Shown here piece by piece: positions 1 to 39,639 of a stretch of DNA of 40,170 nucleotides (position 1 is the stretch's first letter; every line of letters begins with the position of its first letter). Position numbers and translations under genes: made by a program. The notes below the pieces were generated by a model. It saw nothing but the letters and a program-made list of their open reading frames with translations, was not told the DNA's origin and searched no databases. The stretch comes from a virus: IMG/VR virus record IMGVR_UViG_3300045988_166694, positions 1 to 40,170 of that record; one strand, 5' to 3'.

Positions 1-46
1 ATTGTAATAACAGCATCAGGTTGACGTCATGAGGTATAATTAGTCT
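1..46 (+). promoter_or_regulatory. Late promoter element, copy A. A conserved 31-mer ATTGTAATAACAGCATCAGGTTGACGTCATG that contains the TGACGTCA palindrome is followed by TATAAT, and the ATG at 47 lies 6 nt after the TATAAT. This implies a leaderless mRNA.
   Basis: The 31 bp are identical to an inverted copy at about 23895-23925. TATAAT lies at about 35-40. There is no Shine-Dalgarno sequence before the ATG at 47. Confidence 0.6.
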
Positions 47-55
47 ATGAGTAAA
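1..55. repeat. Direct repeat of the window start: 1-55 is identical to 40116-40170. This is either terminal redundancy or a circular wrap-around. The true repeat length is unknown because the window is cut.
   Basis: Exact 55-bp identity between the first and last bases of the window. The window ends 9 nt into a second copy of the 47..526 gene. Confidence 0.9.
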
Positions 56-526
56 AGAGCAGACGGCAAGAATGGTTTTGCAATCGGCGTCGGAAAACGT
101 GCGAACGGCACTTGGAAGAAAGAGCGGACGCCACGTGGACGGCTAGAGATATTATTAAACGACGTCAGTTATGAACAGTTGAAAGACTTGTTCAGGCGGT
201 TGGACAATGACGAGTTCGATGGCACAGCTAGAGTTGGCGACGTTTTAGATATTGCCGTACTGAAAGAGATTTTCGTCAGAAATGCACCAGGCGAAAAGAT
301 AAAAGTCTCTAGCGACAGATTATTAAAACTTTACGATTTTATTTACGGCAAAAAGTCTGAAAACAGTTTGAATGGCAAAATTAACGTTGATATCGACGCC
401 AAGATGACTAGCGTTAGAGGCTTTATATTGCCAGTGTCAGGTCAAGATTTCATCGATGAAAAGGGGCGACAGATTGACCAAGGTGACGTCAAGCCGTCTG
501 AAGACGCTGGGAAACGACAAGGCTAA
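47..526 (+). CDS. Putative terminase small subunit or DNA-packaging protein (159 aa, basic N-terminus).
   Basis: First gene of the late operon and immediately upstream of terL. Call rests on size and position only. Confidence 0.4.
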   Translation: MSKRADGKNGFAIGVGKRANGTWKKERTPRGRLEILLNDVSYEQLKDLFRRLDNDEFDGTARVGDVLDIAVLKEIFVRNAPGEKIKVSSDRLLKLYDFIYGKKSENSLNGKINVDIDAKMTSVRGFILPVSGQDFIDEKGRQIDQGDVKPSEDAGKRQG

Positions 527-2096
527 CAAGTTACGCTCATCGGGCTACTGGGTACCGATGCCGGGGCCTCAGACGTTAGCCTCAGCCGTAGCTAGTGATA
601 GGCGTTTTCGTGAGATTTTATACGGCGGGGCGAGAGGCGGTGGTAAAACTGATTTATCGATAGCCCTGCTTGGCGTTAGATTAGCGAACAAGAGAGCTAA
701 ACAATTAGTTATTAGACGTAATGCTGATGATTTAACTGACTTTGAGTGGCGAGCCAAAGAGGCGTATCAATTTTTGGGGATTAAAACAACTCACAAGCCT
801 CTACTATTCACTGGTAACGGTAGAGGCAGATTACTTGGTGGTCACTTGAACGACGAGGACAGCTATACGAAATATCAGGGACACGAGTATTGCCGTATCA
901 ATATCGAAGAGCTGACCCAGATACCTTATGAAGACATGTATCTTAGACTTATCAGCTCAGCTAGAAGTAAATATCATGATTTATATCCTCAAGTGTTCAG
1001 CACTACTAATCCAGGCGGCGTGGGTATGGCGTGGGTCAAAGAACGTTTTGTCACACCCGATACTGACCTGTGCGATGTGGTTCACAACACCTATAAGTGG
1101 TATGACTATGAAGGCAAAGAACATAAAACTCATTGGCAGGTCGTCATTGACAAGCAGACTGGGCTATGGCGAGCGTATATACCAGCCACCATTGACAGCA
1201 ATCCTATCCTGATGAAAGCAGACCCTGAATACGTTAGGCAGCTAGAGGGGCTAAAACAGACTAATCCTGAACTATACGAGGCTTGGCGAAACGGGTCGTG
1301 GGATGTGCAGTTCGGTGCAGTTTTTGACGACTTTAGCACCCAAAGACACGTGTTTGATAAGTTTGCCGAGTTTGGTATAACTCAAAGACAATACAAGTCG
1401 TCGTGGAAGATATGTGGTATGGACTGGGGCTACAACGATGAGTGTGTGTTGCTGTGGGCGATGTTTGACAAAATAGGTGACGGCAAAGAACGAGCGTTTA
1501 TCTTTAGAGAAAAACATGGCAATCACCATGGCTCAGAGTGGTGGGCTAAAGAGTTTGCCCGTATTCAAGAGAAAGACCCTGTTGATGTCTTTGCTATGCC
1601 CCACGACGCTTATGCTCACTCTGGCGGGGCTGACAAGACTATTGCTGAAGCGTTCAAGGAGCAGACCGATTTGTTACCACCCGACATAAGACCTATTTAT
1701 GTGCGAGCCGACAAGATGATGAGAGACAAGAAGATTAGTGCTATCGATACATTGCATAATATGTTTGCTAACGCCCTAGATAACGAGCCGTCATTACTTT
1801 TTCACCGCACCTGTAACTATCTGATAAAAACACTACCGACTATTGTTTACGCTAAAGAGACTGGCGGTGAAGAGTTGGATAAAGACAACGTCGACCACGC
1901 CCTGGACGCCCTATTCTACACACTGCTGACGGCTGACCGAGTGAGAGGCTCATTGGTCAATCGTAGCCAGATAGTCAAGAAGGTGACGCCGTCGTTTGTA
2001 GCAGGGCTACATAACGTGTACAAAGATGTGGGGCTAGATATTGAACGTCTGGTCAAAGAGGCTAATCAGCCAAAACGTGACTGGCGCACTATTTAG
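456..2096 (+). CDS. terL: Terminase large subunit. The start is uncertain: either the track ATG at 456 (no ribosome-binding site, overlaps the upstream gene) or the ATG at about 558.
   Basis: Walker A motif 'GGARGGGKT' near the N-terminus. The C-terminal nuclease region contains 'MDWGYNDECVLLW'. The protein is 546 aa and sits before the portal gene. Confidence 0.85.
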   Translation: MKRGDRLTKVTSSRLKTLGNDKANKLRSSGYWVPMPGPQTLASAVASDRRFREILYGGARGGGKTDLSIALLGVRLANKRAKQLVIRRNADDLTDFEWRAKEAYQFLGIKTTHKPLLFTGNGRGRLLGGHLNDEDSYTKYQGHEYCRINIEELTQIPYEDMYLRLISSARSKYHDLYPQVFSTTNPGGVGMAWVKERFVTPDTDLCDVVHNTYKWYDYEGKEHKTHWQVVIDKQTGLWRAYIPATIDSNPILMKADPEYVRQLEGLKQTNPELYEAWRNGSWDVQFGAVFDDFSTQRHVFDKFAEFGITQRQYKSSWKICGMDWGYNDECVLLWAMFDKIGDGKERAFIFREKHGNHHGSEWWAKEFARIQEKDPVDVFAMPHDAYAHSGGADKTIAEAFKEQTDLLPPDIRPIYVRADKMMRDKKISAIDTLHNMFANALDNEPSLLFHRTCNYLIKTLPTIVYAKETGGEELDKDNVDHALDALFYTLLTADRVRGSLVNRSQIVKKVTPSFVAGLHNVYKDVGLDIERLVKEANQPKRDWRTI

Positions 2097-2107
2097 ACAG
2101 TGGCGGA

Positions 2108-4285
2108 ATGGCTATAGCGTGCTATGATAGCCATAATATGAACGATAATCAGCAGCCACTTTTTCATGACCCCTCAGTAGACGTCATTACTGACCAGACA
2201 GACGTCGTAGACGAACAGGCTGTCTTAAAGCTGGATATAGACGATAGACAACTCATCTCTAACTTTAGACGCTGGATTGATGGCAGCAAAGATTACTGGA
2301 ATAACACGGACGGCTATAATCTAGAGAACGTGCGCAATCAGAACGAGCGATATTATTTGGGCAAGCAGATAGACAAGACGTTGCTTTATCCTCATCAAGT
2401 GCCGTATCAGGAGAATATTATCTTTACCGACGTGCAAGCTATCATGGCTTACGTCACTGCCTCAGAGCCTTCATGTGAGGTAGTACCTGACAATGATAAA
2501 ACTCAGTCGATGGTTATGGCTGAAGACTTGGAGCGGGCTATTAATATCCATACTGAACGTCACAAGTTGGCTGAGAAGATAAAGTCTGCCGTCAAGAACA
2601 TGTATCTGAAGCGAGTCGGCATTATTAAGCTGATGTGGGACGAAAAGTCGAATGATATCAAGCCTGTCGCTGTTGACCCTGCCAGGGTGATTTTGGATAA
2701 GAACTGTCTCTTATGTGAAGAGCCGCGGTTTATTTGCGAGGTGTGTCTGAAGAGTGTGGGCGAATTGGTGAAGCAATTCCCTGATAAGAAAGATGCACTG
2801 CTCAAAGCCTTGGGTAGAGAACGATGGAGCCAAAAGCTATTTAACGAGATGATAGCTTATAACGAGATATGGTTTACTGACGATACGGCTGATTATGGCG
2901 AGCAGGAGTGTGTAGCTTGGTATTACAAGGACGTCGTCTTTGACAAAATGAAAAACCCGAATTATCTCTATGACGGTGAGGGCGTGGCTGTCAATAACTT
3001 CTTAGACAGACCGACAAAACCGTATATCTTCTTTAACTATATCAATGACGGCTCATCACTAATTGACCAGACCACCCCGCTTGAGCAGGTTATACCATTA
3101 CAAGACGTTTTGAATAAGCGAGGGCGACAGATTGTCGAAAATGCCGATACGGCTAACTCTATCCTGGTTTTTAAGGCTGGGGCAATCAAGCAGGAGACGG
3201 CGGAGAATATTACCCGTGACCCTAACCAGAAGATATTGCTGGAGACAGCACCTGAACAGCCTGTCAGCAGTGCCTATGGGGAGATAGAACCACACCTGTT
3301 GCCTAATTACGTCATAAACGATAAACAGGATATCAAGAATGCTATCCACGATATTTTAGGTGCGCCAAGCCAGTTCAGGGGTAGTGATAGTGACAACAAT
3401 GTGAACACTCTAGGTGAGGCTCAGATGATTAAGTCTCAAGCTAGTGGTAGGCAGGACGAGATTGTACGAGCTATCGAGATGAGCCTGGATAGCTACTTTA
3501 AGTTACTGGTGCAGATGATGAAAGTTTACTATGACGAAAAGCACCCCTTTGCCACCAGAGATACTGATGGTAAGTTTGTCTACACCGAGCTATCCAGAGC
3601 TACCATGCCCGATATTGCCTCTATCTCTATCTCTCATGGCTCATTACTCAAGGTAGACCGTGAGAGACGAGAGAATGTAGCTATGGCGATGGCTAAGATG
3701 GGGCTAATTGACCCGTACAACTTGTTCAAAGACCTATCGCTACATGACGCCGATAAACGTTATGAAGCTTTAGTCAAGTTCAAGGTAGACCCGACCAGCC
3801 TGGTTAGCGATGTCAAGACCGAGGTGGACAACCGTGAAGCTTATATCGACTTTGTCACCATTATGGGCGGCAATAATGCCGAGCCACGTCAAGATATCGA
3901 ACCAGGCTATATCTTAGCTATGCGTAAGTTACTGATGACTGACCAATTCTTGTATGCTAAGCCTGACCGACAGAAGAAGCTACTGGACTACATCCAAGGT
4001 TGCGTGATTGACCTGGGTAACCGAGTGAGACTAGAGCAGGCTGACCAGGCTGGATTACTGGTAGACCCGAGTATACCGATTACCCCTGAAGCACCTGAAG
4101 TACCGCCAGAGATGATGACTCAACAACAACCCCAGCCACCGATGCCGCCTGACCAAGCCCAGCCCGAACAACCACCTATCCAGAATATGCCCGCTGTACC
4201 CAACCAAGAAGCCCCTGTATCTATCCAGGACGCAGGTATACCTCAAGACGCCATTAGTACACTAGGTGGATTGCTAGGAGGCTAG
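2108..4285 (+). CDS. Portal protein (725 aa) with a Pro/Gln-rich C-terminal tail.
   Basis: Size and position directly after terL. The C-terminus is the low-complexity segment PQPPMPPDQAQPEQPP. Confidence 0.55.
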   Translation: MAIACYDSHNMNDNQQPLFHDPSVDVITDQTDVVDEQAVLKLDIDDRQLISNFRRWIDGSKDYWNNTDGYNLENVRNQNERYYLGKQIDKTLLYPHQVPYQENIIFTDVQAIMAYVTASEPSCEVVPDNDKTQSMVMAEDLERAINIHTERHKLAEKIKSAVKNMYLKRVGIIKLMWDEKSNDIKPVAVDPARVILDKNCLLCEEPRFICEVCLKSVGELVKQFPDKKDALLKALGRERWSQKLFNEMIAYNEIWFTDDTADYGEQECVAWYYKDVVFDKMKNPNYLYDGEGVAVNNFLDRPTKPYIFFNYINDGSSLIDQTTPLEQVIPLQDVLNKRGRQIVENADTANSILVFKAGAIKQETAENITRDPNQKILLETAPEQPVSSAYGEIEPHLLPNYVINDKQDIKNAIHDILGAPSQFRGSDSDNNVNTLGEAQMIKSQASGRQDEIVRAIEMSLDSYFKLLVQMMKVYYDEKHPFATRDTDGKFVYTELSRATMPDIASISISHGSLLKVDRERRENVAMAMAKMGLIDPYNLFKDLSLHDADKRYEALVKFKVDPTSLVSDVKTEVDNREAYIDFVTIMGGNNAEPRQDIEPGYILAMRKLLMTDQFLYAKPDRQKKLLDYIQGCVIDLGNRVRLEQADQAGLLVDPSIPITPEAPEVPPEMMTQQQPQPPMPPDQAQPEQPPIQNMPAVPNQEAPVSIQDAGIPQDAISTLGGLLGG

Positions 4286-4286
4286 A

Positions 4287-4555
4287 ATGAGCGTCTTAAG
4301 CAGTTTATTTAAGAGATTGCTCAAGGGTAGAGGCGATGATATCGCTGAAAAGGTAGCGCAGAGGTTATGGATAATTTGGGCAAGCTGGGCGTCAAGAATA
4401 TCCAACCCTACAACGTTGATGAAGGTATCCAATCCTACCTTGGCAACATGGCTAAGAAAGGACGACGGCTTGTCAATCCATACGTGCTTGGACTAGGTGG
4501 AGCGGGCGTCTTATCCAGTTTGTTCAGTGGTCAAAATGGCTCAGATAACGCATAG
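4287..4555 (+). CDS. Small virion-associated protein, apparently frameshifted. The first 26 codons (frame of 4287) carry the conserved N-terminal motif MSVLSSLFKRLLKGRGDDIAEKVAQR. The protein-like continuation is in the -1 frame from about 4349 to 4555.
   Basis: A good ribosome-binding site 'AGGAGG' precedes 4287. After about residue 27 the frame-0 product becomes W-rich and non-protein-like, while the 4349-4555 frame reads as a normal protein. The N-terminus is homologous to the N-termini of the 13956..15785 and 12197..13954 products. Confidence 0.35.
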
Positions 4556-4608
4556 TGACATAAACAACATTTTAAGATAGACTAAAATTGTAATAAGAAA
4601 GGAGATAG

Positions 4609-5694
4609 ATGAGCGATATCGCCGATATCTTAGAGAGTGCTTTGGCTAACGATGAGTCATCCGAACAGCCCGATACTGGGCAGGATAATCAGCCAGAACA
4701 GCCAGAGCAAGAGACTCAGGACGAGGGGCAATCAGATACCAACCAAGACGAAGCTCAGTCTGAAGCTAATCAGGAAGAGTCTCAGAATGATGAGGCTGAC
4801 CAAGAGCAACCCGACCAAGAGCAGGAGGATGAGCAAGGGGGCGAAGGCGAACAAAAAGATGAGCAACCCGAGCCTGAACAGCCTCAGGAAAAACAAGAAC
4901 CCGAAGCCCCGAAAAAGCAAGACCAACCGCAGTCAATCAGTGACGAGATGTTGCGAGCTGAGCTTGAACGACGGGGTATGGTGGCTACCAAAAAGCAAGA
5001 CCAACCTCAGCCCGAAGACCCACGTTTTAGTCAACCAAGAGAGCTACCTGACGCCGTGTGGTCAAAGATGACCGAAGAGGGTAAGTATATCTATAATCAG
5101 CTACCTTATCTGACAATTAGAGGTAAGGACGGTGTTCTTAGGATTAAGTCTGACGAGCAGATACCACCTGACTTTGAGTGGGCTGATGAGGCGGAGAAGA
5201 CGCAATTCTACTCTAAGGAGCTACCGGCTCAAGTTTATCGAGCAGAACAACTCAACGCTCAGGTGACCAAAGCGGTCGAGGATTACAATCGAGAGCTGGA
5301 ACGGCAACGTGAGGCTCAGACGATAGTGCGGGGCGTCGAGAAGCTACAGGCTAGTGGTATTTTGCCTAAAATACCTGGTGAGCGTGGTAGTAAAGAGTAC
5401 GAGGGGTCGGCAGAGCTGGCTTACGTAAACAACGTGCTTGGCTTATGGGAACAGCATCATCGTCAAGGTGAGAATATCTCTATCGAGACCGCAGCCTATC
5501 TATACAAGGCTCAGCACCCCGATGCATTGAAGCCCAAGCCGGCCACCACCCCGACAGACAAGATGCGTAAGGCTAAGTCAAGCAATATCAACGGCGGAGC
5601 AAAGGGTAAAGCTATGCCTGAACAGAGGCACACTTTTCCACCGGGGACAATGCCGAGCGACATAATAGATTACTATCTGGATGATTTTGAATAA
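4609..5694 (+). CDS. Acidic, Gln/Glu-rich protein (361 aa). Scaffolding protein candidate.
   Basis: Ribosome-binding site 'AAAGGAGA'. Extremely acidic low-complexity N-terminal third followed by a charged helical region. Located after the portal gene. Confidence 0.4.
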   Translation: MSDIADILESALANDESSEQPDTGQDNQPEQPEQETQDEGQSDTNQDEAQSEANQEESQNDEADQEQPDQEQEDEQGGEGEQKDEQPEPEQPQEKQEPEAPKKQDQPQSISDEMLRAELERRGMVATKKQDQPQPEDPRFSQPRELPDAVWSKMTEEGKYIYNQLPYLTIRGKDGVLRIKSDEQIPPDFEWADEAEKTQFYSKELPAQVYRAEQLNAQVTKAVEDYNRELERQREAQTIVRGVEKLQASGILPKIPGERGSKEYEGSAELAYVNNVLGLWEQHHRQGENISIETAAYLYKAQHPDALKPKPATTPTDKMRKAKSSNINGGAKGKAMPEQRHTFPPGTMPSDIIDYYLDDFE

Positions 5695-5703
5695 AGGAGG
5701 AAT

Positions 5704-6348
5704 ATGGCAGAAAACACCAGCAATGCAGACCAGAGCGACAATTTAGAAGATACGCTGACTCAAGACCTTGACTCAAGCACTAGGGGGACTGAAGTAGCCT
5801 CATCTCAATCGATGCGTGAGATTTTGCGAGGTATGTTTGAACCGAGTGATTACGTTAAGCTAACCAACCCATTCAAGTATTCTATGGGATGGGTATACGC
5901 TAATCCTGCCAAGCAACCTAAGTCGGAGCAGACATCGGGTGCAGGCAAGCGTGTTTATCACGGCGTACAGGACAAGAAGATACTCAAGCCTGGCGAGAGT
6001 ACCGCAGTAACAGGCGGAGAGGCTTATGTGGCTATCGAGCGAATGTATAAGCGTTACGTACAGATAGATGGTGACGTGGTCATCATGTTCAACAACCCCG
6101 AGTTTATGCGTGAGTTCATCCCCCGTGTCTACAAGGGCAAGGTCGATGTGGCAGAGCTAATCGATATGATAGACAACAAGCATCAACCAGCCCCCGTCGA
6201 GGTTAAGACCGAGGACTTGGCGCAGATGCGTGAGAATATTGCTGACGATATCGACAATCTAGGTTTTGCTGATGAGGATGAACCTGAGGCACCTAAAGAG
6301 ATAAAGTTTAAGAAGCCTGTCGGAAGACCGCCCAAAAACAGTAAGTAG
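5704..6348 (+). CDS. Hypothetical head-associated protein (214 aa).
   Basis: Ribosome-binding site 'AAAGGAGGAAT' 4 nt before the ATG. No recognisable motifs. Confidence 0.5.
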   Translation: MAENTSNADQSDNLEDTLTQDLDSSTRGTEVASSQSMREILRGMFEPSDYVKLTNPFKYSMGWVYANPAKQPKSEQTSGAGKRVYHGVQDKKILKPGESTAVTGGEAYVAIERMYKRYVQIDGDVVIMFNNPEFMREFIPRVYKGKVDVAELIDMIDNKHQPAPVEVKTEDLAQMRENIADDIDNLGFADEDEPEAPKEIKFKKPVGRPPKNSK

Positions 6349-6364
6349 TTGCTAAAATGAGGGT

Positions 6365-6697
6365 ATGGATGAAGTTAGTCGGCAGATTGGAGAACTTAGA
6401 GGACGTCTAGACACCTTTGAGCGTGACCTGTCTAAGGAACTTGGGGAGCATGCTCAGAGCCTAGACCATATACAAGCCTCAGTCACTCAGATAGAAACCA
6501 GATTAGCCGTTAAAGATAACTCACTAATCGGTAAACTATCGCAAGTACTGGAAAACTCACTAATTAAGATTGTCGGAGCAGGCTTTGTGACAGTGATACT
6601 GATATCTATCACTAATCACTACCAAAGCCAGCTGGATGAGCTTAAAGCACAAGTAACTAAGACCATGACGGTGGTCAAGGAGAGGGAAATAAAATAA
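6365..6697 (+). CDS. Coiled-coil protein with a C-terminal transmembrane helix (110 aa). Possibly a lysis-associated membrane protein.
   Basis: Hydrophobic segment 'IVGAGFVTVILISI'. Lies immediately upstream of the endolysin. Confidence 0.45.
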   Translation: MDEVSRQIGELRGRLDTFERDLSKELGEHAQSLDHIQASVTQIETRLAVKDNSLIGKLSQVLENSLIKIVGAGFVTVILISITNHYQSQLDELKAQVTKTMTVVKEREIK

Positions 6698-6777
6698 TGG
6701 ACATTAGACCTGGAGAATTAGAGGTAGCTATCCCCGTAGACCCCGAGGAACTGGAAGCTATGGGCAAGGGGGAGTAG

Positions 6778-7833
6778 ATGGCGTACTTTGAACAGAAGTG
6801 GCTATCACCCAACCACACTATCGGCAGGGATGGAGCTACTATAGATAAGATTGTCTTGCATCACGCTGCTACAACCAGTTTTGCGGGTATCGGAGCAACT
6901 TTTCAGAATAGGAACATTGCCACCAGTGCCCACTATGGCGTATCACCCGGGCAAGTCTGTCAATATGTCGAGCCTCAGAATACGGCTTGGGCGGTAGGTA
7001 ACTGGGAGCAGAACAAGCGTTCAATCAGTATCGAGTTTGTCAACTCTACTGGCGCACCGAGCTGGGATATTGCCCGAGAGACTTTAGATACTGGAGCAGA
7101 GCTGGTAGCTAATATCGCTAAGTACCTGGGCTGGCGTGGGCTAAAGATAGGTGAGAATGTCTTCTATCACAGTGACTTTTTCCCGACGGCTTGCCCGGGC
7201 GTGCTTAAGAGTACATCGAGAGGACAATATGTAGTAGATAAGGCTAACGCTATCATAAATGGCGGTACTTTTACCGCACCAGAGCAATCAAAAGTGCCAG
7301 TGCCTAGATTAGCCAGTCAATCCCTTAATCCTGGTATGTGGCTATATCATGACTATAATGGTAATTGGCGCAATAAGCCGTCTCTAACGGGCGAAATAAT
7401 GGCTACCTACCCTGCTAACACCTGGGTCAAGATGAAAGGCTATGTGCATGGCGAGGCGGTCGATGGTGACGATAGGTGGCTGGTGTCAGACGTTCATGGC
7501 TGGTTTGCTCATGTCTCTATCTTTGGTGGTGTCTATCTACTGCCTGATTTAGGTAAGGTCAATCCTGATGAAGCTAAACCGTCGGGAGCTCATACGCTGG
7601 TTGAACAGCACGCCACCTTTAAGGCTACCGATACAATGAACATTAGGCGTGACCCGTCTGTCGGGGCTGGTGCTGTCGTAGGCACGTTAGCACCCGGTGA
7701 GACGGTCAACTATGAAGGTTATATTGATATCAACGGCTATCGCTGGATTAGCTATAGAGGTAACTCAGGTATGAGGTGCTATATCGCTAGACGCAATCTA
7801 TCGACCGGTGAGATTTATGGAGAATGTTATTAA
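6778..7833 (+). CDS. Endolysin: N-acetylmuramoyl-L-alanine amidase (Amidase_2/PGRP fold) with a C-terminal SH3-like cell-wall-binding region.
   Basis: N-terminal region 'DKIVLHHAATTSF...AHYGV...SISIEFVN' matches the Amidase_2 fold. The C-terminus contains 'YRWISYRGNSGMRCYIARRN'. Ribosome-binding site 'AAGGGGGAG'. Confidence 0.85.
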   Translation: MAYFEQKWLSPNHTIGRDGATIDKIVLHHAATTSFAGIGATFQNRNIATSAHYGVSPGQVCQYVEPQNTAWAVGNWEQNKRSISIEFVNSTGAPSWDIARETLDTGAELVANIAKYLGWRGLKIGENVFYHSDFFPTACPGVLKSTSRGQYVVDKANAIINGGTFTAPEQSKVPVPRLASQSLNPGMWLYHDYNGNWRNKPSLTGEIMATYPANTWVKMKGYVHGEAVDGDDRWLVSDVHGWFAHVSIFGGVYLLPDLGKVNPDEAKPSGAHTLVEQHATFKATDTMNIRRDPSVGAGAVVGTLAPGETVNYEGYIDINGYRWISYRGNSGMRCYIARRNLSTGEIYGECY

Positions 7834-7844
7834 AAGGAGGAACT

Positions 7845-8072
7845 ATGAATAACTTAGAATTAGACAATAAGACTTATGACCGATTGAAGCTAGCGGTACA
7901 GGTAATCTTACCTGCCCTGCTAACCTGCTACACCACTATCGCTGTAGCTTTAGGGCTACCTGCTACTGAAGTGGTCACTATCATCGCAGGAGCGGTCATT
8001 ACCTGCCTGGGCACAATTTTGGGTATCAGCTCAAAGAACTATGAAAAGAACAAGATGGACAATAACGCCTAA
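7845..8072 (+). CDS. Holin (75 aa, two transmembrane helices). The start is moved to the ATG at 7845, which follows 'AAAGGAGG'.
   Basis: Two hydrophobic helices, 'VILPALLTCYTTIAVALGL' and 'VVTIIAGAVITCLGTILGI', and a charged C-terminus. Adjacent to the endolysin. Confidence 0.7.
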   Translation: MNNLELDNKTYDRLKLAVQVILPALLTCYTTIAVALGLPATEVVTIIAGAVITCLGTILGISSKNYEKNKMDNNA

Positions 8073-9487: not shown

Positions 9488-9746
9488 ATATCGAGCTACT
9501 ACAACTGGTTATCTGGATGGTGTAATAATTACAAAATAGCTTGTAGTTAGATAGCTGTCTTGATACTATATTGGTGTAGCATATTAGGTTTTTGGTTGAT
9601 TTTACTAGTATGCTTTGTACTTTCACCACACACAATCTTTCTCGTAAGCGGGTTTTCTCTTAATCTTTTCCCGCTTGCGGGTCATTACCTGTCGTTAGAG
9701 TGGTCTTTTGACTGGTTTATCCCACTCTTACGATGCATGTTGCGAA

Positions 9747-9780
9747 GACGCCTAGCTCACCCCAGGCGTCTTTTTTGTTT
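9747..9780 (+). terminator. Rho-independent terminator: a 7-bp GC-rich stem (GACGCCT...AGGCGTC) followed by TTTTTTGTTT.
   Basis: Read directly from the sequence. Terminates plus-strand transcription before the 9801 gene. Confidence 0.7.
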
Positions 9781-9800
9781 ACTGGTAAGATAGTAATAAG

Positions 9801-13954: not shown

Positions 13955-13955
13955 T

Positions 13956-15785: not shown

Positions 15786-16639
15786 TAGTAGTAGCCTCCT
15801 CCATATTCATCTTCATCATCTTGGTACTGGTCTTGATACTGGTTCTGTCCGCCACCGCCAAATAACGGCAATAATTTACTGCCACCATATAAAGCACCGC
15901 CACCTAAAGCTACCTTGCCCATAGTAGACTTGGGCAGATACTTACGCCAATCAGTGCCTGTTAGCTTATTTTTTAGACTGCCAAACTTTTCAAATCCGAT
16001 AGGCATAGCTGCGCCCATTACTGCGCCCATAGGTGCGCCACTTAAGGCGTCACTGAGCTTAGTGTTTTGACCACCTTCACGATAGGCACCAGCTACGCTA
16101 CTCGCTGCACCCGAGAGGGCGTTTCTAACCAGTGCGCCTCTGCTAATCTTGCCTGCTGAAGTTAAGGCTTTGACGCCTGATGCCCCAGGTATGATGTTCA
16201 TGAGGCTCTCGACACCAGCTCCAATATCTGAGACGGGGTCACGATTGTTCTGCTTGTAGGTATTGCCCATCAAATCGACCGCCGCTGTACCAGCCTGATA
16301 CATCGGATTGATGATACCGCCGATTATCCCGTTACCAAGAGGCTTGTATCGCCAGTCTTTCTCCTCTTGCTCATAAGCCTTGCCCAGCGTATCCAATCCG
16401 CTCTTGTTTTGGCTTCGGGCAGTGTTGTAAGAGTTCATGATAGCTGAACGTCTAGCCTGCTCATCGGGGCTAAGACTGCCCCAATCGACGCCCTCGATAT
16501 TTTTAGCGTAATAGTCATTAGCTTGCTGGTTCAAAGCATTAGCTTGGTCTATCTGCTTATTGACCGTATCACGGTCATATTGCCGACCTGTACCAAAAAG
16601 TAACTTGCCTAAATTACCCAAGATATCCATGTCTACCAA
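15785..16639 (-). CDS. Gly-rich virion protein (284 aa) that ends in 'YGGGYY'.
   Basis: ATGA start/stop overlap with the flanking genes. Gly-rich composition. Confidence 0.5.
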   Translation of the reverse strand: MVDMDILGNLGKLLFGTGRQYDRDTVNKQIDQANALNQQANDYYAKNIEGVDWGSLSPDEQARRSAIMNSYNTARSQNKSGLDTLGKAYEQEEKDWRYKPLGNGIIGGIINPMYQAGTAAVDLMGNTYKQNNRDPVSDIGAGVESLMNIIPGASGVKALTSAGKISRGALVRNALSGAASSVAGAYREGGQNTKLSDALSGAPMGAVMGAAMPIGFEKFGSLKNKLTGTDWRKYLPKSTMGKVALGGGALYGGSKLLPLFGGGGQNQYQDQYQDDEDEYGGGYY

Positions 16640-17568
16640 TCTCCTCCACCGTTACCATAGCTGCGCTCTGTCGGCCAGCGGTCTTCTATACCCTTATTAG
16701 CCCAAAACGTACCACCGCCAAGTGCCGCTAGCGGTCCATACATCTTAATGGCATCCCAAAGATTATTAGCCTTGGTAGCATAAATCGGCTCTTGACGCTT
16801 TCTCGGGGTGTAGGTGTTATTGTTACCAGGTTTATCAGTGTTGCTTCTACTAGGCTGACGCTGAGGCAGGTAACTACCTATCCTCGCCGCTTCTATCTGG
16901 GCATCATGGGCTAACTTAGCGCGGTAGTTCTCCTGTTGCGCTTTCCACCTGTCTAACGCCATCTGGTCTTGTGCTAACTGATACTTATCTCTAGCACCAT
17001 ACTCATTAGCCAGCAAGCCTCTATCCTGCTGGTTCATCTGGTAGGCAGAATTACGCTGACCAAGCAGGGTTGACCAGACGCTACGCAAAGCATCCAAGGT
17101 CTTCTCCTGGTCGCTCATCTGGTTACCAGCCACATACTGCGTCTCCTGCGTACCTCGATTAGCTAAATCAGTGTAATCTTGCAAAGTGTTGTTGTAGTTC
17201 TGACTGAGCATGTTCATAGTGTTGGCGTTATCGCCCTGTCTAGACTGCATAATCCGTGATAGCTGAGCCTGAGTTAGGTTGCCACCGTACTGTTGCCTAA
17301 TGGTATCTGGCATGCGGTTGATAGTATCGTTAAGCTGGTCTACTGCGCCTCTGGCTTGCTGATAACTAGTCCTGGCTTTGTTTATCTCATCAGTGTTGAG
17401 ATACCTATCTCTGGCTGCGTTATATATGTCACCAAAGCTCTGACGCTTATCAAAAGCGTTGTTGTACTTGCCATACGCCTCATCTGCCTGCTGTTGGTAG
17501 GCGTTGTATTTCTGATAACTAGCGTCTGCGTTTCGGTTAGCTGATGCAATACGTCCACTAAAATCCAT
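16633..17568 (-). CDS. Gln-rich coiled-coil virion protein (311 aa), paralogue of the 17611..18438 product.
   Basis: Shared 'Q(R/Q)(F/Y)GGNLT(E/Q)..L' segment and shared N-terminal Y/Q-rich heptads. Confidence 0.55.
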   Translation of the reverse strand: MDFSGRIASANRNADASYQKYNAYQQQADEAYGKYNNAFDKRQSFGDIYNAARDRYLNTDEINKARTSYQQARGAVDQLNDTINRMPDTIRQQYGGNLTQAQLSRIMQSRQGDNANTMNMLSQNYNNTLQDYTDLANRGTQETQYVAGNQMSDQEKTLDALRSVWSTLLGQRNSAYQMNQQDRGLLANEYGARDKYQLAQDQMALDRWKAQQENYRAKLAHDAQIEAARIGSYLPQRQPSRSNTDKPGNNNTYTPRKRQEPIYATKANNLWDAIKMYGPLAALGGGTFWANKGIEDRWPTERSYGNGGGDW

Positions 17569-17610
17569 CTAAACTCCTATTCTTAGGATTATCGTAACAC
17601 AGTAGCCTCG

Positions 17611-18438
17611 TTAATATGCCCCCGCATAAGCACCACCTTCGTATCTTCTGAAGTATTCAGCTAGCGATAGCTCACCAGATTGTGTCTTAGCAATATCTGA
17701 ACGCTTGCGGGCAGTAGCTAAGTCAGCGTTACGCTGCCGTTCGGCACTAGCTCTCGCCAGGCTGAGTTCTGTATTTATCTGGTTTTGATAACGCTTAGTC
17801 CTATTAGCCTCTATCTCTCGCTCCTGAGCCATCCAGCGTTGTCTAATATTCCACCAATCATAGGCACTCTGAACCGACTGTTGCTGATATCTCGCTTGAG
17901 TAGCCATATTCGACCACTGCTCCTCGTTCTTGACTGCTGTATTCCAGTCATCAGCTCGCCTCTTGATACCTGACCAGTAGCTATCGCTCTGCTTGTTAGT
18001 TAGCCCTAACGCCTGATTGAAAGCTTTCTCGACCCTAGAATGATAATCGTTGAACTTGGTCTGGTAGCTAGCCTCATACTGCTTAAATTGGCTGGTGAGG
18101 GCTTCTTCTTGAGGTTCTTTGACCCGCTCCAGTTCTTCTTCGGTAAGGTTGCCACCAAAACGTTGAACAATAGTAGTACTGAGCCTATCTAGCTGGTCTT
18201 TAACTACCGCCAGTGCCTCCTTAGACTTGTCTAGAGTAGTTTTAACGCCTGATACGTCTAAGTCTTTCTCTGATTGACGCTTGTACTGGTCATATATTGT
18301 CTGGTAGTCGGGACGTTGGTCAAAAGCAATATCGTAAGCCTGCTTGGCTTGCTTGGTCTGCTCTTGCGCGGCACCGTATGCACCGTAAGTCTGGTCTACA
18401 TATTGTTGGGCTTCTTGTAGACGTCTTTGCCAATCCAT
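17611..18438 (-). CDS. Gln-rich coiled-coil virion protein (275 aa), paralogue of the 16633..17568 product.
   Basis: Paralogy to 16633..17568 as described for that gene. Confidence 0.55.
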   Translation of the reverse strand: MDWQRRLQEAQQYVDQTYGAYGAAQEQTKQAKQAYDIAFDQRPDYQTIYDQYKRQSEKDLDVSGVKTTLDKSKEALAVVKDQLDRLSTTIVQRFGGNLTEEELERVKEPQEEALTSQFKQYEASYQTKFNDYHSRVEKAFNQALGLTNKQSDSYWSGIKRRADDWNTAVKNEEQWSNMATQARYQQQSVQSAYDWWNIRQRWMAQEREIEANRTKRYQNQINTELSLARASAERQRNADLATARKRSDIAKTQSGELSLAEYFRRYEGGAYAGAY

Positions 18439-18445
18439 AGTCTTA

Positions 18446-19831
18446 TTATAAATGGTAAGGGGTGATTAGTGTGGTGATATCAAAAGTTATGCCAGTTAGC
18501 CACCACCAGCTCCACCATTGTGAGGTAAACCACCATTGACCGCCACTAGCTCGGTTGCCCCACGCCCACGCCACGATAGAGTAGATATCGATATCACCAT
18601 TATCTCTTGGCTCGATAGAAAAACCACAATGAATACTCGGGTCAGTCATCATCAACATGGTCGGCTGTGAGCCGTTAATATAGCCCCTGGTCGGATAATT
18701 GCCACTTGGTGAAAATGCCCAGACAAATAATTCATTAGTAGCACCGGCTGATATCACGTTTTCTGTAATATTGAAGTTAGAGTAGGCAAAGATAGCATCG
18801 GTGCTGTTAGCTGGAAAATACACGTCAAAGTTGCCATCACCGTCATACTGCCACCAAGCCTCATGAATGGTTGACCTGAGATTGCCGCTACCAATCTCGC
18901 TATGAGCTAGGTTGATTATCCTAAGCTGTCCAGCTGGTATGCCAGTCCTGATAGTGTGAACATGTTTTTTGTACATGCCATGACCTGACCTATAGACGTT
19001 ATCCCAAGTAAATGGATTAGGTGTAACTGGTGGTTCTGGGGCGTCACCTAGTACGGTAAACTTGTACGTTCTAATCTGAGGTGTTTTACGTGAAATATCC
19101 GCCCCGATTAGCTTGTAGGCACTGTTCAGATAGACAACGTTATCATCATAGGGTGATAGTACCTTTAAGCCATAATCAGCTCTTGGCACGATACCGCCAT
19201 CTTTAGGTGGTAGTTCGCTTGACCCCTCGGCATCATCCTCATAGTAAGGCTTACCCTTACCTGAATACTGCACTTTGTAGGTTTTACTCACTAAATCAAA
19301 GAGGCAATCACTCGGGGCGGGTGTGGTGCTGTATTCAGTGCTACCTTGCTTAACTGGTACTACGTGCAACCGTTCAGCACCAGTCTCGTCTCGTAAGATA
19401 ACCTCACCCACGTCCATTAGTGGTGCTCGTTTTTCAATCTCCCCGCCAGTATTGACTGAACCGATAAAGACTGACCGGCTAGGGTTGATAATCGTGCTAT
19501 TGAGTTCTACTCGCCGTCCATTGATTGAGCCATAGCTAGGCTCGATATGTAGACGATAAATCGGGCTACTATCATAAGGGATATCAAATATGTCGGGATA
19601 ATCCAAAGCTACTCTCTTACTGCCATAATACATATAAAACTTGTTGTCCATAATTTCACAGCCAAACTGGTCTGGTGTTGTATAAGTAGCTCTACTACCA
19701 CACAGCCAGCCATTACCCGGATAACGGTCTTTAGTCCTAAATACACCGTCAACAGTCCAGCCGTGCTGAACAATGACGTTGCTATCGATTGACTGGGTAT
19801 CGCCGACACCGCCCAGTCTAAGCCACCTCAT
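18446..19831 (-). CDS. Virion or tail protein (461 aa) with a Trp-rich C-terminal tail 'SGGQWWFTSQWWSWWWLTGITF'.
   Basis: Position in the structural operon. Unusual aromatic C-terminus. Confidence 0.5.
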   Translation of the reverse strand: MRWLRLGGVGDTQSIDSNVIVQHGWTVDGVFRTKDRYPGNGWLCGSRATYTTPDQFGCEIMDNKFYMYYGSKRVALDYPDIFDIPYDSSPIYRLHIEPSYGSINGRRVELNSTIINPSRSVFIGSVNTGGEIEKRAPLMDVGEVILRDETGAERLHVVPVKQGSTEYSTTPAPSDCLFDLVSKTYKVQYSGKGKPYYEDDAEGSSELPPKDGGIVPRADYGLKVLSPYDDNVVYLNSAYKLIGADISRKTPQIRTYKFTVLGDAPEPPVTPNPFTWDNVYRSGHGMYKKHVHTIRTGIPAGQLRIINLAHSEIGSGNLRSTIHEAWWQYDGDGNFDVYFPANSTDAIFAYSNFNITENVISAGATNELFVWAFSPSGNYPTRGYINGSQPTMLMMTDPSIHCGFSIEPRDNGDIDIYSIVAWAWGNRASGGQWWFTSQWWSWWWLTGITFDITTLITPYHL

Positions 19832-20727
19832 GGATTGACCACCAATCTAGTCACCTCACTAGCTACCATCGGCTGCCTCACTACTACCAGGCTGCTCTTG
19901 GGATAGACTAAATGCCCATCGATATTGAACCCTTTGACCCCGTTTAAGGTATAGGCTCGATAGCCTCCTGCGTCCTGATAAGATACACCAGCGTTATGCC
20001 ATAACCCTTGGCTATCTTGGATAAAAGAGTAGGCTGCCACCTGGTTATAATCCATACCACCAGGCAGTGGATAGAAGCTACTCTCTTTCTTGTCAAAGGT
20101 CGCCACCTTGACCGCTAGCACTAGCTGGCTCTGCACCATAGCGTTCAAGCCTAGCTTATCCGGGTCTGTCTCTTTAGGATTATCGCTGAGGATATGTTTT
20201 AAGCCATAATCGTACGTCTCACCCCAATCAGTGGTATCGGGGGTATCAAAATAGGGGTATTCAATGTCATGACTGATATCTACAGCGATAAGCAAAGCTC
20301 TATCTTTGAGCGTCTGAGCTCTATGCTCGTTATATATGTTTAAGTCGTAAGCGGTAATCTCTTGATATATCCAGCTCTCATCCCACCAAAAACCTCTGTA
20401 CGTCTCACCGAATGAGGCTGGTTTATCTGTAGTGATTAGCATCGGTGGATAGCCTAGATTATGTAGTAGCTTAGCCCTGTACTTGTAGACAGTTCTCATC
20501 TCACCGCTACGTATATTATATTCAGTAGTAGCACCATCTTGTAGTACCTGCCAGGGGCTATTCTGGTCAATGGTAGTTATCCATTGCAAACAAGGAAAAG
20601 ATGAGCAATACAGCAAGTTCACATCTGAAGCTGTTCTGGCGTCATAGCCTTTCTTAGCTATTTTGATGCCGTAATCCTGCCTAGGTCGCATCGTTGACGG
20701 CATCGGCTTTGGTTCAAGAATTAGCAC
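19828..20727 (-). CDS. Tail or structural protein (299 aa).
   Basis: Operon position only. Confidence 0.45.
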   Translation of the reverse strand: MLILEPKPMPSTMRPRQDYGIKIAKKGYDARTASDVNLLYCSSFPCLQWITTIDQNSPWQVLQDGATTEYNIRSGEMRTVYKYRAKLLHNLGYPPMLITTDKPASFGETYRGFWWDESWIYQEITAYDLNIYNEHRAQTLKDRALLIAVDISHDIEYPYFDTPDTTDWGETYDYGLKHILSDNPKETDPDKLGLNAMVQSQLVLAVKVATFDKKESSFYPLPGGMDYNQVAAYSFIQDSQGLWHNAGVSYQDAGGYRAYTLNGVKGFNIDGHLVYPKSSLVVVRQPMVASEVTRLVVNP

Positions 20728-20987
20728 TAGAAAGCTCCTGGTGAATAGCCCATCAGCACGACTACTCTGCCCTTGTTGTCCTTAACTTGATAGAGACCCT
20801 GCACCACCTGAGTACCTCTAGTGACACCTGTCCTAGTCTGGCGTGGTGCTATCTGGGTCTGCTGAGCAATATCCAACTCACTGACATTGCCAATCTCCTC
20901 AAAGGTAGCCTTAAGCTCGGTTGGTTTAGTCTGAGAATAGCTGGTTACTAAATCGTTAGTGTTCTGATTATATACAGGTTCTGCCAT
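20727..20987 (-). CDS. Small structural protein (86 aa).
   Basis: ATGA overlap with neighbouring genes on both sides, which suggests translational coupling. Confidence 0.4.
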   Translation of the reverse strand: MAEPVYNQNTNDLVTSYSQTKPTELKATFEEIGNVSELDIAQQTQIAPRQTRTGVTRGTQVVQGLYQVKDNKGRVVVLMGYSPGAF

Positions 20988-23002
20988 TATTTATGCATCT
21001 TGCCCTCCTCGGGCAAGCTCCTTATGTTAATACCGATTGACGTTATTCTGGCAGGCTTGGTAGCACCGTCATTTATGCCCTCTAAACCAAATTGTAGCAC
21101 CTTAAATCGCTTGTTCACTTCAAAATACAGCTCTGTACTGCCTGGCTTAGCTTTGCCCTCGCTGAATACCCAATTACCGCCATTTATCTTGTACTTTAGC
21201 CTAATCGTGCACCCCTGAGGCAACGGGTCAAAGGTAGCCACCATCCTGAGTAGTTCTTTAGCTTTCCAAGGGTAGCCACCATCATACTCCAAGCTCTCAT
21301 ACTTAAACTTCTTAGCTGGCTTTGATGAGTTATTGACTACAGTTATATACCAGGTATCAGAGTTGTTGACGTTGTCGTGAACTCGATTAGAGATGTAAAG
21401 GTTTTCGCCAAAGTTCCAAATACCGCCGACTTCAAAGCTATACTTATCCGTATTACAGTTGTCGGGCAAACCGGGTAAAGCGTATGAATAATAGTAGCTG
21501 TTCGGATAGTTCTTGTCTAATGAGCCATAGCTGTAAACGCCAGCTCTGGTATTTAACGTTGTCTTGCCTGGATAGACCAGTAGCAATATCCCTTTGCGCA
21601 CCGTCATAGCATGGTCATAAACGACCGTCTGGTTATCTACACCTGAAAACTCACCCAAGTCACTGGTGAGCGTTCGTATCTTAGCGATAGCCTTTGAGCC
21701 GGTATAAGCATATAAGCCGTTGTCTATCACCATGTAGATGATGTTCTGATGAGAATAGAGGCTCTGAGGTGCGCCCTCTTCTAAATCCACTCTGAAGTTG
21801 ACGTTATCGGCCACGCAGTCCCAGAAGCATAGGCTACCTTGCTGAAAGTCTCTCGATTGACCCTTACCGACCCTTTCACAGCCCATCACAATATATTCAT
21901 CTGAACTGGTCAAGCTGGTTATCTCCATGCCGTCAACGGCACTGACACGGTTAGCTTGCATCACTTCGGGCGTCTCTGCCTCTGCCCCTGTCGGTAACCA
22001 CTGCATCAGATATCTGCCATTACCGACTAGCAATGTGCCGTCCTTGTAAGCCATTATCGGATGATAGCCACTGCTGGTGATATTTAACGCATTAGCATAA
22101 TATCTGAAGTGCAATCCATACATCTTGCCGCTCTCGTATGCATCGACTGTCCAGTCATTAGTATCAGCTACTAGATGAATATGATATTCTGTTCCACCTG
22201 TCTTATAGGTCACAATTTCAATCGGTTTTGAAAAGCTAAAATCAATCGTGCCATCGGGCTTAATATCGCTAACAGACGCCTTGGCTTTAGCTATCTCTTT
22301 ATTGGCGTTGTTATGTAAAATCAGCGTCATCTCACCTGATGCTGGATGAGACCTAACTCTAACCGCTATCTTAGCCATCGGTGAGACATCAGGTATGAAG
22401 ACACACTTGTCGTCGTCGCCTTCAGAGAGGGCTGTTTTGACCACTGTAGTACCAGCCCCGCCACTCTTAAATGACCACCTGTCCACGCCATTGCCCGTCA
22501 GATAGCCGGCAGGACTTCTGACTAGTATCTGAGCAACAGTGTTAGACGTGCTGTAATTCAAGCTATGAACTACTACTCTGCTTGAAAGGTTATCGCCAGT
22601 GACGTTGTCAAAACTGTACAGCCTGTTGTTAGCTGTAATATACAGCGTGTCGTTCATATTTTGATAGGCAATATCAGCTCGACTGACGCTATCTGTCCAA
22701 ACGTTAGCCATAACTGTTGCTATATTAGCTCTGTCCACTTTAATCAGCTTGCCGCGATCGGTTATCATCCATTTCATGCCATCGGCTGATTGTGTCATGC
22801 CTGTGACAAGACCTAGCTCAGTGGTCTTGCGGATAATATCAGCTTCAGCCAAAACAGTCATAGCACTAGGCTCTAATCTAGCGTCTAAGCACTCGCTATT
22901 AGCGTAAGCGTTCTTGATACCGACCTTCTTATCCGAGCCTTGCCCGCCGTAAAACGACGTCTGACAGATAACTAAATCTGTACTATCGTATCGGCTAGCC
23001 AT
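20987..23002 (-). CDS. Large tail protein (671 aa). Tailspike, tail-fibre or tail-knob candidate.
   Basis: Largest protein of the minus-strand operon. β-rich composition. Confidence 0.45.
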   Translation of the reverse strand: MASRYDSTDLVICQTSFYGGQGSDKKVGIKNAYANSECLDARLEPSAMTVLAEADIIRKTTELGLVTGMTQSADGMKWMITDRGKLIKVDRANIATVMANVWTDSVSRADIAYQNMNDTLYITANNRLYSFDNVTGDNLSSRVVVHSLNYSTSNTVAQILVRSPAGYLTGNGVDRWSFKSGGAGTTVVKTALSEGDDDKCVFIPDVSPMAKIAVRVRSHPASGEMTLILHNNANKEIAKAKASVSDIKPDGTIDFSFSKPIEIVTYKTGGTEYHIHLVADTNDWTVDAYESGKMYGLHFRYYANALNITSSGYHPIMAYKDGTLLVGNGRYLMQWLPTGAEAETPEVMQANRVSAVDGMEITSLTSSDEYIVMGCERVGKGQSRDFQQGSLCFWDCVADNVNFRVDLEEGAPQSLYSHQNIIYMVIDNGLYAYTGSKAIAKIRTLTSDLGEFSGVDNQTVVYDHAMTVRKGILLLVYPGKTTLNTRAGVYSYGSLDKNYPNSYYYSYALPGLPDNCNTDKYSFEVGGIWNFGENLYISNRVHDNVNNSDTWYITVVNNSSKPAKKFKYESLEYDGGYPWKAKELLRMVATFDPLPQGCTIRLKYKINGGNWVFSEGKAKPGSTELYFEVNKRFKVLQFGLEGINDGATKPARITSIGINIRSLPEEGKMHK

Positions 23003-23873
23003 TTAGCCTCCAAGGCGACACTCGTGGGTCATTGACAGGCAATCTTGGATATGGATTGATAACGCCATCTGACGTCTTCAAGCCATACGTTGTTCTGTAT
23101 CGCTCCACTAGCTCATCATAGAGTTGCTTATAGTAGCCTGCCGTCTGCAAGTCTTTGCGCATCAGATAAAACTGTTGACAGGCATAGTAAACGATGGCGT
23201 CGTGATATTCTTCAGGAATATCGACGCTCTGACCGATTGTAACAGTAGCGTTATCTGAGCTATCGCCCTCGTAATAGTTCTGTAATAACAGGTGAGTGTC
23301 GTCAAGCCGTCTGTCTATTTTAATCGCTCGCTCATCTGAAAATATCATATAGCAGTCGTCTACTACGTCAGATCTGAACTTGTCGCCACCCACAGCTTCA
23401 ACCGCATCGCTGTTAGTCTCTAGCTTGACTTTAATAGAATAGTCGTCGATATGTAGCCTAGTCGCTTTAGCCTCATAAATGACTTTTAATCCATCAGTAA
23501 CATTTACTGAACTCGGCGGCAACAGCTCAATCTGACGTGGTGTCTTGACAAAATAGTATGTCGGTTGTGAGGCTAAAGTTAGCCAGTTATGTTTAACCGC
23601 TAGATATTCGCTAGTACTTTTAATCTCAATCAGCTCATTATCCCTAGCCGTCACAGCTGTTATTCTCAAAACGTCATCGCTTAGCTGATATGCTGTCTGC
23701 TTAGCTATCAGATCGGTCGTCTTAGTCTTAGTCACAGGATATCGTCTAGCTAGAGAATTGACGAGCTGAGCGCCCGAACAGACATCTTTAGCTATCTTAA
23801 CCAGCTCATCTGAGCTGTCGTCTAAACCGCACAGCTGAGCGACTTCTGACTTCATCTGAGTAAACGTCTTCAT
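22995..23873 (-). CDS. First gene of the minus-strand late operon (292 aa). Head-tail adaptor or tail protein candidate. Probably translated from a leaderless mRNA.
   Basis: Its ATG lies 6 nt after the TATAAT of the inverted late-promoter copy. No Shine-Dalgarno sequence. Confidence 0.45.
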   Translation of the reverse strand: MKTFTQMKSEVAQLCGLDDSSDELVKIAKDVCSGAQLVNSLARRYPVTKTKTTDLIAKQTAYQLSDDVLRITAVTARDNELIEIKSTSEYLAVKHNWLTLASQPTYYFVKTPRQIELLPPSSVNVTDGLKVIYEAKATRLHIDDYSIKVKLETNSDAVEAVGGDKFRSDVVDDCYMIFSDERAIKIDRRLDDTHLLLQNYYEGDSSDNATVTIGQSVDIPEEYHDAIVYYACQQFYLMRKDLQTAGYYKQLYDELVERYRTTYGLKTSDGVINPYPRLPVNDPRVSPWRLNG

Positions 23874-23925
23874 ATCTCAATTATAACGTATTATCATGAC
23901 GTCAACCTGATGCTGTTATTACAAT
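23874..23925 (-). promoter_or_regulatory. Late promoter element, copy B: the same 31-mer as at 1-31 in inverted orientation, followed by TATAAT and a leaderless ATG.
   Basis: The reverse complement of about 23895-23925 equals bases 1-31 exactly. Confidence 0.6.
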
Positions 23926-39638: not shown

Positions 39639-39639
39639 T

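Follow-up and report, generated by a model that had tools for sequence, protein, structure and literature searches.

The phage genome considered here (IMG/VR record IMGVR_UViG_3300045988_166694, whose 40,170 nucleotides are referred to in full as the window) carries two inverted copies of a short repeat, each placed upstream of one of two convergent operons of virion genes. Comparison with related assemblies shows that the two copies recombine with each other and that crossing-over between them inverts a 24-kb late segment of the genome relative to a 16-kb early segment; both isomers occur commonly in nature, and they change into each other more rapidly than point mutations build up. Our reading of the whole, which we consider probable though well short of certain, is a homology-driven flip-flop between duplicated late-promoter regions that head the two operons. 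The phage is a circular-mapping, podovirus-like phage of 40.1 kb from the human mouth, and its host is probably a member of the Saccharibacteria, as suggested by protein similarity.

Bases 1-55 of the window are identical to bases 40116-40170, a 55-nt terminal identity that corresponds to the k=55 overlap of a circular assembly, and an independent MEGAHIT contig with an identical first gene measures 40234 nt (40115+119). The true genome is 40115 bp, circular or circularly permuted. The 31-mer ATTGTAATAACAGCATCAGGTTGACGTCATG was found at 1-31 (+), 23895-23925 (-) and 40116-40146 (+), with 0 matches expected in shuffled sequences; the last of these hits is not a third copy, because bases 1-55 duplicate 40116-40170. 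An earlier note on this DNA had described the 31-mer as recurring in a perfect reverse complement, which the exact matches confirm. It had given 1-31 as the position of one copy; that copy really occupies 40111-40147 and is not at a genome end, and the window just opens at the first base of the exact repeat. The inverted repeat is exact over 32 nt (1-32 versus 23894-23925), and across the circular junction it extends to 37 nt with one mismatch (40111-40147 versus 23894-23930). Copy A lies upstream of the gene in the terS position and copy B upstream of the adaptor gene; the spacers between repeat and -10 box differ by 6 nt, and this heterology forms the inner edge of the repeat in the window's clade. 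The internal TTGACG, which lies 8 nt from TATAAT in one copy and 14 nt in the other, and the perfect palindrome TGACGTCA were both found as described previously. Further TGACGTCA sites in the window (484, 25866 and 35736) are intragenic and show no extended similarity.

Close relatives (93-98% protein identity) were gathered from IMG/VR, ENA and Logan. An IMG/VR search with an exact 24-mer of the element gave no match, because the relatives read AACATC where the window reads AACAGC, and the relatives in that database were retrieved by protein-anchored searches. Two flanks were distinguished on the early side: the A-flank, with the gene for a polynucleotide kinase-phosphatase (PNKP), genes for proteins of 138 and 87 aa and a terminator hairpin, and the B-flank, with a GroEL module and a divergent early promoter. 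The arrangement of the window, with the A-flank before the terS-position gene and the B-flank before the adaptor gene, was present in 11 assemblies (the window and 10 others). In 8 assemblies the flanks were exchanged, which places the 24-kb late segment in the opposite orientation with respect to the 16-kb early segment; an automated classification of all junctions gave the same result. Amongst the IMG/VR contigs, _144796 has its flanks swapped relative to five others and is a self-consistent full-length genome. The flips separate near-identical phages: ERZ27319393 (opposite arrangement) and ERZ28634148 (window-like) show a single difference over the 3,537 nt that lead from the repeat into the portal gene, whilst their upstream flanks are unrelated, and ERZ988228 and ERZ505021 encode an identical adaptor protein and share the same private repeat variant but carry opposite flanks. 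In a tree of the terS-TerL region the opposite arrangement is scattered, implying at least three flips. No ORF (open reading frame) and no promoter linkage is altered by the inversion, as each -10 box and start codon follows its copy of the repeat and the inner sequences stay with their genes. The flip is thus probably a tolerated by-product, as in herpesvirus or chloroplast isomers. No description of an inversion in this phage group was found in the literature.

It is extremely improbable that the two arrangements are artefacts of assembly at an inverted repeat. Assemblers do struggle there: five contigs of 23-25 kb (SPAdes-style) begin and end at the repeat and four Logan contigs also terminate at it, giving nine repeat-ending contigs in total. 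Contigs assembled at k=119-141, far above the repeat length, nevertheless cross the repeat of 37-45 nt, which excludes k-mer collapse; both junction types (11 versus 8) were recovered from independent samples and by independent assemblers, and the consistency of _144796 over its full length also speaks against an artefact. Contig breaks at the repeat are, indirectly, what would be expected from a mixture of both isomers in one sample. The window contig itself opens at the branch point of the de Bruijn graph that would be expected if both orientations were present in its sample.

The two copies evolve in concert. The two bases before TTGACG read GG, GC, TG, AG or AC depending on the genome, always the same in both copies, and AACAGC in the window and GACGTTAT in contig _137474 are likewise matched in both copies of the respective genome. 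Private variants were common to both copies in 6 of the 6 genomes having any, and the mean number of mismatches was 0.1 nt between the copies within a genome versus 1.37 nt between genomes (permutation p ~1e-5). These comparisons show that gene conversion keeps both copies identical within each genome. Their identity is therefore explained by recombination between them and is not evidence of a shared binding site. The outer edge of the repeat varies, from 32 nt of exact match in the window to at least 45 nt in _094417, and the inner edge stops at the 6-nt indel; in SRR21779614, a relative of 80% identity without this indel, the repeat is shifted and runs through the -10 box to the ATG before both operons. 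Such sliding edges would be the behaviour of homology-dependent conversion tracts. A core, CATCA..GACGTC..TG, is present in every version of the repeat.

Each copy of the repeat belongs to what is predicted to be a late-promoter region. As the earlier note had reported, both elements are followed by TATAAT, 6 nt and an ATG (35-40 and 47; 23885-23880 and 23873), and neither ATG is preceded by a Shine-Dalgarno (SD) sequence, unlike most genes of the window, which have GGAGG-like motifs. The arrangement TATAAT-N6-ATG occurs three times in the window, versus 0.49 expected, in every case at a gene start and without an SD. The 6-nt gap between the -10 box and the ATG is invariant in about 40 homologous sequences, and the bases of the gap vary. 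No -35 box is found at 16-18 bp from TATAAT. At the TG position the window reads AGG-TATAAT and CGT-TATAAT, with a G at -14 only, and relatives carry TGATATAAT, TGATACAAT or TGTTACAAT. The adaptor start MKTFTQMK is kept down to relatives of 37-43% identity. An upstream in-frame ATG of the adaptor gene is cut off in the window by a TGA (23871-23897, -), so that MKTFTQMK is the true start (292 aa); public gene calls (P0001-P0003) begin the adaptor 8 codons early, at an ATG inside the repeat, and give 300 aa. The invariant gap, the missing SD and the conserved adaptor start support in silico the leaderless, -35-less start proposed previously, and make a leaderless late promoter plausible. The four early promoters are canonical (TTGACT-17-TAnnAT) and are followed by strong SD sequences, and the late promoters would thus form a distinct, -35-less and probably leaderless class. 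The early family (+ strand; 23938-24015, 27753-27829, 30104-30183 and 33193-33267) is conserved over about 48 nt, with the form TTGACT-17-TG-n-TAnnAT, a spacer containing AAAGCAC, AATGTCAA downstream and then the start region AAAGGAGGACAACATG each time; the TM7 phage DolZOral124_53_65, introduced below, has an analogous 75-nt family.

The third TATAAT-N6-ATG (18436-18450) is shared by close relatives and by one relative with 41% identity, and has neither repeat nor dyad upstream. This type of promoter would thus be independent of the repeat, and the earlier claim that one element controls the whole morphogenesis region is not supported as it stands. The third site overlaps the stop codon of the upstream gene and may be an internal leaderless promoter. 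The gene that it heads belongs to a pair of adjacent paralogues (16633-17568 and 17611-18438, both on the - strand) that are both assigned to PHROG 37153, without assigned function; one has an SD and the other the TATAAT-N6 geometry.

The dyad within the repeat is nearly invariant, and in the 80%-identity relative it changes symmetrically from TGACGTCA to AGACGTCT. The dyad is centred near -21.5 in copy A and near -27.5 in copy B. A position-dependent activator does not fit this 6-bp (half-turn) difference in the distance from dyad to -10 box. No RinA, ArpU or sigma-like family was recognised by Pfam or NCBIfam, including in the region 38231-39903 and in other small early ORFs, and PDB sequence searches with four candidate regulators returned noise only. 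One small gene nearby (38994-39212, +) encodes a 72-aa protein with the pattern CxxCxxC ... FCNxxC and a basic tail (a TRASH/FCS-like zinc ribbon); it has the size of P2 Ogr, is represented by a 70-aa ORF in relatives and has no significant family or PDB match.

In the mechanism that we propose, the element would be what the two copies of a duplicated late-promoter region share on their upstream side, and exchange between the copies would be driven by homology, with the phage's own RecT/YqaJ-exonuclease system and the VRR-NUC-like nuclease as catalysts. RecET/Red-type systems act on homologies of about 35-50 bp; a repeat of 32-45 bp would fall within the length range for RecT-type systems, and no site-specific invertase would be needed. 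Searches of about 55 ORFs against Pfam, PHROGs and NCBIfam detected no resolvase, invertase or integrase domain of either the serine or the tyrosine type. Homology-driven exchange is favoured because no recombinase domain was found, RecT and YqaJ are present and the repeat edges slide. The predicted first base of the transcript from each operon's -35-less TATAAT is the A of the AUG itself, and the probable ligand of the dyad (TGACGTCA, or AGACGTCT in the distant relative) is a dimeric regulator, either an activator or a repressor. The earlier note had recognised the element, the promoter motifs and the operons, all of which are present, and had overlooked the circular overlap and the inversion. 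Its convergence of the operons on a bidirectional terminator at about 11.0 kb is upheld by a hairpin that scores on both strands. The features discussed here are collected in Table 1.

Table 1. Coordinates of the repeat copies, promoter sites, operons and putative recombination genes in the window.
Feature	Position	Strand	Remarks
Inverted-repeat copy A	40111..40147	+	TCATTATTGTAATAACAGCATCAGGTTGACGTCATGA; upstream of terS-position gene; holds dyad TGACGTCA
Copy A seen at window start	1..32	+	Duplicate made by circular-assembly overlap
Inverted-repeat copy B	23894..23930	-	Upstream of adaptor gene
Spacer from repeat to -10, copy B	23886..23893	-	8 nt, TAATACGT; only 2 nt (GG) in copy A
Assembly overlap	40116..40170		55 nt, identical to 1-55
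-10 and start, first gene of operon 1	35..49	+	TATAAT 35-40, 6 nt, ATG 47-49; predicted leaderless
-10 and start, adaptor gene	23871..23885	-	TATAAT 23885-23880, 6 nt, ATG 23873-23871; predicted leaderless
Third TATAAT-N6-ATG	18436..18450	-	Start of ORF 17611-18438; no repeat upstream
Late operon 1	47..10994	+	Packaging/portal/lysis; TerL, portal, endolysin and tail-fibre-region genes
TerL	456-2096	+	Operon 1
SU10-type portal	2108-4285	+	Operon 1
Endolysin	6778-7833	+	Operon 1
Late operon 2	11040..23873	-	SU10-type adaptor via tail genes to major head protein
SU10-type adaptor	22995-23873	-	Start of operon 2
Major head protein	11040-12131	-	End of operon 2
Bidirectional intrinsic terminator	10992..11023		Hairpin with 14-bp stem, A and T runs either side; scored on both strands
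A-flank	39983..40100	+	Just outside copy A; TTGACA-16-TAGACT promoter-like site, about 85 nt with two hairpins, terminator 40076-40094
B-flank	23938..24459	+	Canonical -35/-10 early promoter, strong SD, gene 24004-24459; divergent from adaptor operon
RecT-family single-strand annealing protein	30395..31315	+	Pfam 9.5e-40; candidate catalyst of repeat-repeat recombination
YqaJ-type recombination exonuclease	31308..32282	+	RecT partner
VRR-NUC/Holliday-junction-resolvase-like protein	39222..39638	+	Weak match

Several points weigh against this reading. For homologous exchange to be so frequent, a repeat of 32-45 bp is short; a recombinase may hide among the many ORFs without assigned function, and the crossover interval given by ERZ27319393 versus ERZ28634148 includes the dyad. 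The repeat diverges between genomes by about 4%, compared with about 10% for coding DNA, and this conservation suggests a sequence-specific function beyond homology. Coexistence of the isomers within a sample is deduced from contig breaks, of which the four in Logan possibly stem from k=31. Promoter, leaderless start and late timing are assigned from sequence and gene content, and the host from the 65% identity of the major head protein to that of a TM7 phage together with the oral source.

The 31-mer might instead be bound, as the earlier note had suggested, by an activator of the phage or an alternative sigma factor that turns on the two late operons; on this view selection for binding would account for its identity in both places. 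The absence of a -35 box at a usable spacing, the near-invariance of the blocks ATTGTAATAA and TTGACGTCAT across genomes and the symmetric change of the dyad, as for a dimer-binding site, are all consistent with this, but selection does not explain why neutral-looking private variants, such as the 2 nt before TTGACG, are always matched in both copies. Together with the variable distance from dyad to -10 box, the third TATAAT-N6-ATG without an upstream element and the lack of any match to an activator or sigma family, this makes the explanation an unlikely one; moreover, -35-less late promoters can be served by a negative switch, as with gp39 of Thermus phage P23-45 (PMC3950348). Even more doubtful is the idea that the conserved blocks represent an outward sigma-70-type promoter (ATGACG-18-TACAAT on the opposite strand) directed into the early-side flanks, with the inward promoter needing its -10 box only. 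A promoter scan scored 9/12 at both copies, and the positions that vary between genomes fall in the would-be spacer. The match is weak, however, and its spacer measures 18 nt; the 80%-identity relative does not conserve it, ERZ27262923 has TGCAAT for TACAAT, and at copy A it would point antisense into the terminator. We regard such a promoter as very unlikely.

Programmed site-specific inversion would account for the flips in another way: a recombinase that went unrecognised in the scans would act at the dyad core, in the manner of Gin in Mu, and the flip would be a selected switch. The repeat is of similar length to the gix-containing repeats of the Mu G segment (34 bp), the two orientations are near parity (11:8), flips occur between identical genomes and the core CATCA..GACGTC..TG is found in all versions of the repeat. 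Against this stand the lack of a serine or tyrosine recombinase domain in any scanned ORF, repeat boundaries that slide between clades and stop at an indel, as in homology-dependent conversion, and a dyad whose central CG, being a palindrome too, would leave a serine recombinase without polarity; nor is any ORF or promoter linkage altered. Site-specific inversion is accordingly judged decidedly unlikely. Terminal inverted repeats of a linear or bipartite genome were ruled out, since contigs cross the repeat into both flanks, as were a transposon, since there is no transposase, and a telomere-resolvase site, since the copies lie 24 kb apart.

The flip could be a selected, quasi-programmed genome switch and not a tolerated by-product, a proposal that we think has a small chance of being correct and that can be put in two forms. 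With regard to expression, the isomer would set which late operon (packaging/lysis/tail fibres or adaptor/tail/capsid) immediately follows the early/middle operon and its terminator in the same direction, and the isomers would differ in expression or lysis timing as a form of bet-hedging. With regard to replication, inversion during theta replication might, by analogy with the yeast 2-micron plasmid, lead to double rolling-circle replication and yield concatemers for packaging. If either were true, a phage of ultra-small bacteria would possess, in a 37-bp promoter-embedded repeat plus a RecT system, a minimal device for inversion without an invertase.

Homology-driven exchange, to return to the preferred reading, can be compared with several known systems, of which the closest in mechanism are the herpesvirus and plastid isomers and the closest in appearance is the Mu G segment. 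In the L/S isomers of herpes simplex virus and the flip-flop of chloroplast DNA, as in the window phage, identical inverted repeats split the genome into two mutually inverting unique segments, the isomers occur in roughly equal numbers and the copies show concerted evolution; exchange takes place without a dedicated invertase and leaves every gene intact. Their repeats are hundreds to thousands of bp long, whereas here they measure 32-45 bp and lie in promoter regions of a 40-kb tailed phage; theirs are equimolar isomers in one population, whereas here the isomers are known from separate assemblies. The G segment of Mu (Gin), the C segment of P1 (Cin) and the P segment of e14 (Pin) likewise have short inverted repeats (34 bp in Mu) and occur in both orientations. 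Those segments are of 3-4 kb, have an adjacent serine invertase, use an enhancer with Fis and switch the coding ends of tail-fibre genes, unlike the present case, in which the flip takes in 24 kb, or 60% of the genome, and leaves every ORF unchanged, and no gene for an invertase was found. Serine-invertase sites also have fixed boundaries and a non-palindromic central dinucleotide, whereas the boundaries here vary and the dyad centre is CG. The yeast 2-micron plasmid (FLP/FRT, Futcher amplification) is also a circular replicon with inverted repeats and two interconverting forms, but FLP is a dedicated tyrosine recombinase, its repeats are of 599 bp and a role in replication mode is, for the window phage, pure speculation.

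The late promoters themselves have parallels elsewhere. In Thermus phage P23-45, extended -10 middle and late promoters stay active whilst gp39 blocks -35 recognition (PMC3950348). Both phages have a -35/-10 early class and late promoters with a good -10 box and no -35, relatives of the window carry TGnTAnAAT, and the transcript starts at or beside the start codon, which for the window phage is predicted from sequence. The window differs in keeping only the G at -14 of the TG, and no gp39- or AsiA-like protein was identified. A dyad upstream of a -35-less promoter before packaging genes is also a feature of the systems governed by Mu Mor/C, P2 Ogr, staphylococcal RinA, ArpU and TP901-1 Alt, and the zinc-ribbon protein encoded near the repeat recalls Ogr in size. 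In those activator-dependent promoters the site is centred at -43.5 or -55, whereas the dyad of the window lies inside the core promoter at a variable distance, and no member of the Mor/C, Ogr or RinA/ArpU families was found in the window by Pfam or NCBIfam.

A megablast search of GenBank phages with 12 kb of the window gave no match. By protein search, the nearest deposited genome is that of the TM7 (Saccharibacteria) phage DolZOral124_53_65 (MG269973), to whose major head protein that of the window is 65% identical; one related contig carries the label human oral metagenome. Neither the head protein nor the endolysin, each used to scan species-representative genomes, yielded a prophage or host clue, and Rfam and tRNA scans of the window were empty. 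The TM7 phage has the same gene set, including GroEL, the exonuclease and the SU10-type structural genes, and its late region opens with a terminator hairpin followed by TGATATAAT; it differs in having its late modules collinear on one strand, no copy of the element, no enriched dyad and an adaptor leader with an SD. The late modules are also collinear in four IMG/VR relatives (37-43% adaptor identity), and in these collinear phages the adaptor gene follows the tail-fibre gene and is preceded by TGnTAnAAT, which has no -35 box, and a leader of about 20 nt containing an SD. The convergent operons, the repeat and the leaderless geometry are thus derived features of the window's clade.

Other features of the window touch on these subjects less directly. 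The first gene of operon 1, in the terS position, encodes a protein of 159 aa without assigned function. Perfect 50-nt direct repeats (10874-10923 and 10937-10986, +) with a period of 63 nt, which amounts to a 21-aa duplication, sit at the 3' end of ORF 9801-10994, just ahead of the terminator. Within the A-flank, 39983-40100 (+) is a possible small-RNA gene, with a TG-bearing TAGACT -10 box, a fold z of -2.8 and a second hairpin that serves as terminator; it is highly conserved in close relatives, absent from the 80%-identity relative and without an Rfam match. A GroEL-like chaperonin (25192-26646, -; PHROG 2.4e-72) is encoded beside a GroES/Cpn10-like protein (26652-26972, -; Pfam 1.6e-4), a pair also present in the TM7 phage. 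A T4-type RNA ligase (36365-37390, +) is followed by the PNKP (37387-38229, +), forming a tRNA/RNA-repair pair that suggests counter-defence against host anticodon nucleases.

These results show that the genome of a tailed phage can alternate between two isomers through the flip of a segment that makes up 60% of its length and holds all virion, packaging and lysis genes; the flip is driven by a 32-45-bp repeat that doubles as a promoter region, and no invertase was found. The repeat is where metagenomic assemblies of these phages break off or disagree, a classification based on synteny would split identical phages, and gene callers mis-start the adaptor gene within the repeat. To our knowledge, almost nothing has been established experimentally about Saccharibacteria phages. 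The repeat offers a natural readout of short-homology recombination, probably RecT-dependent, in these phages, and the three candidate leaderless late promoters could be used to study transcription switching in their hosts.

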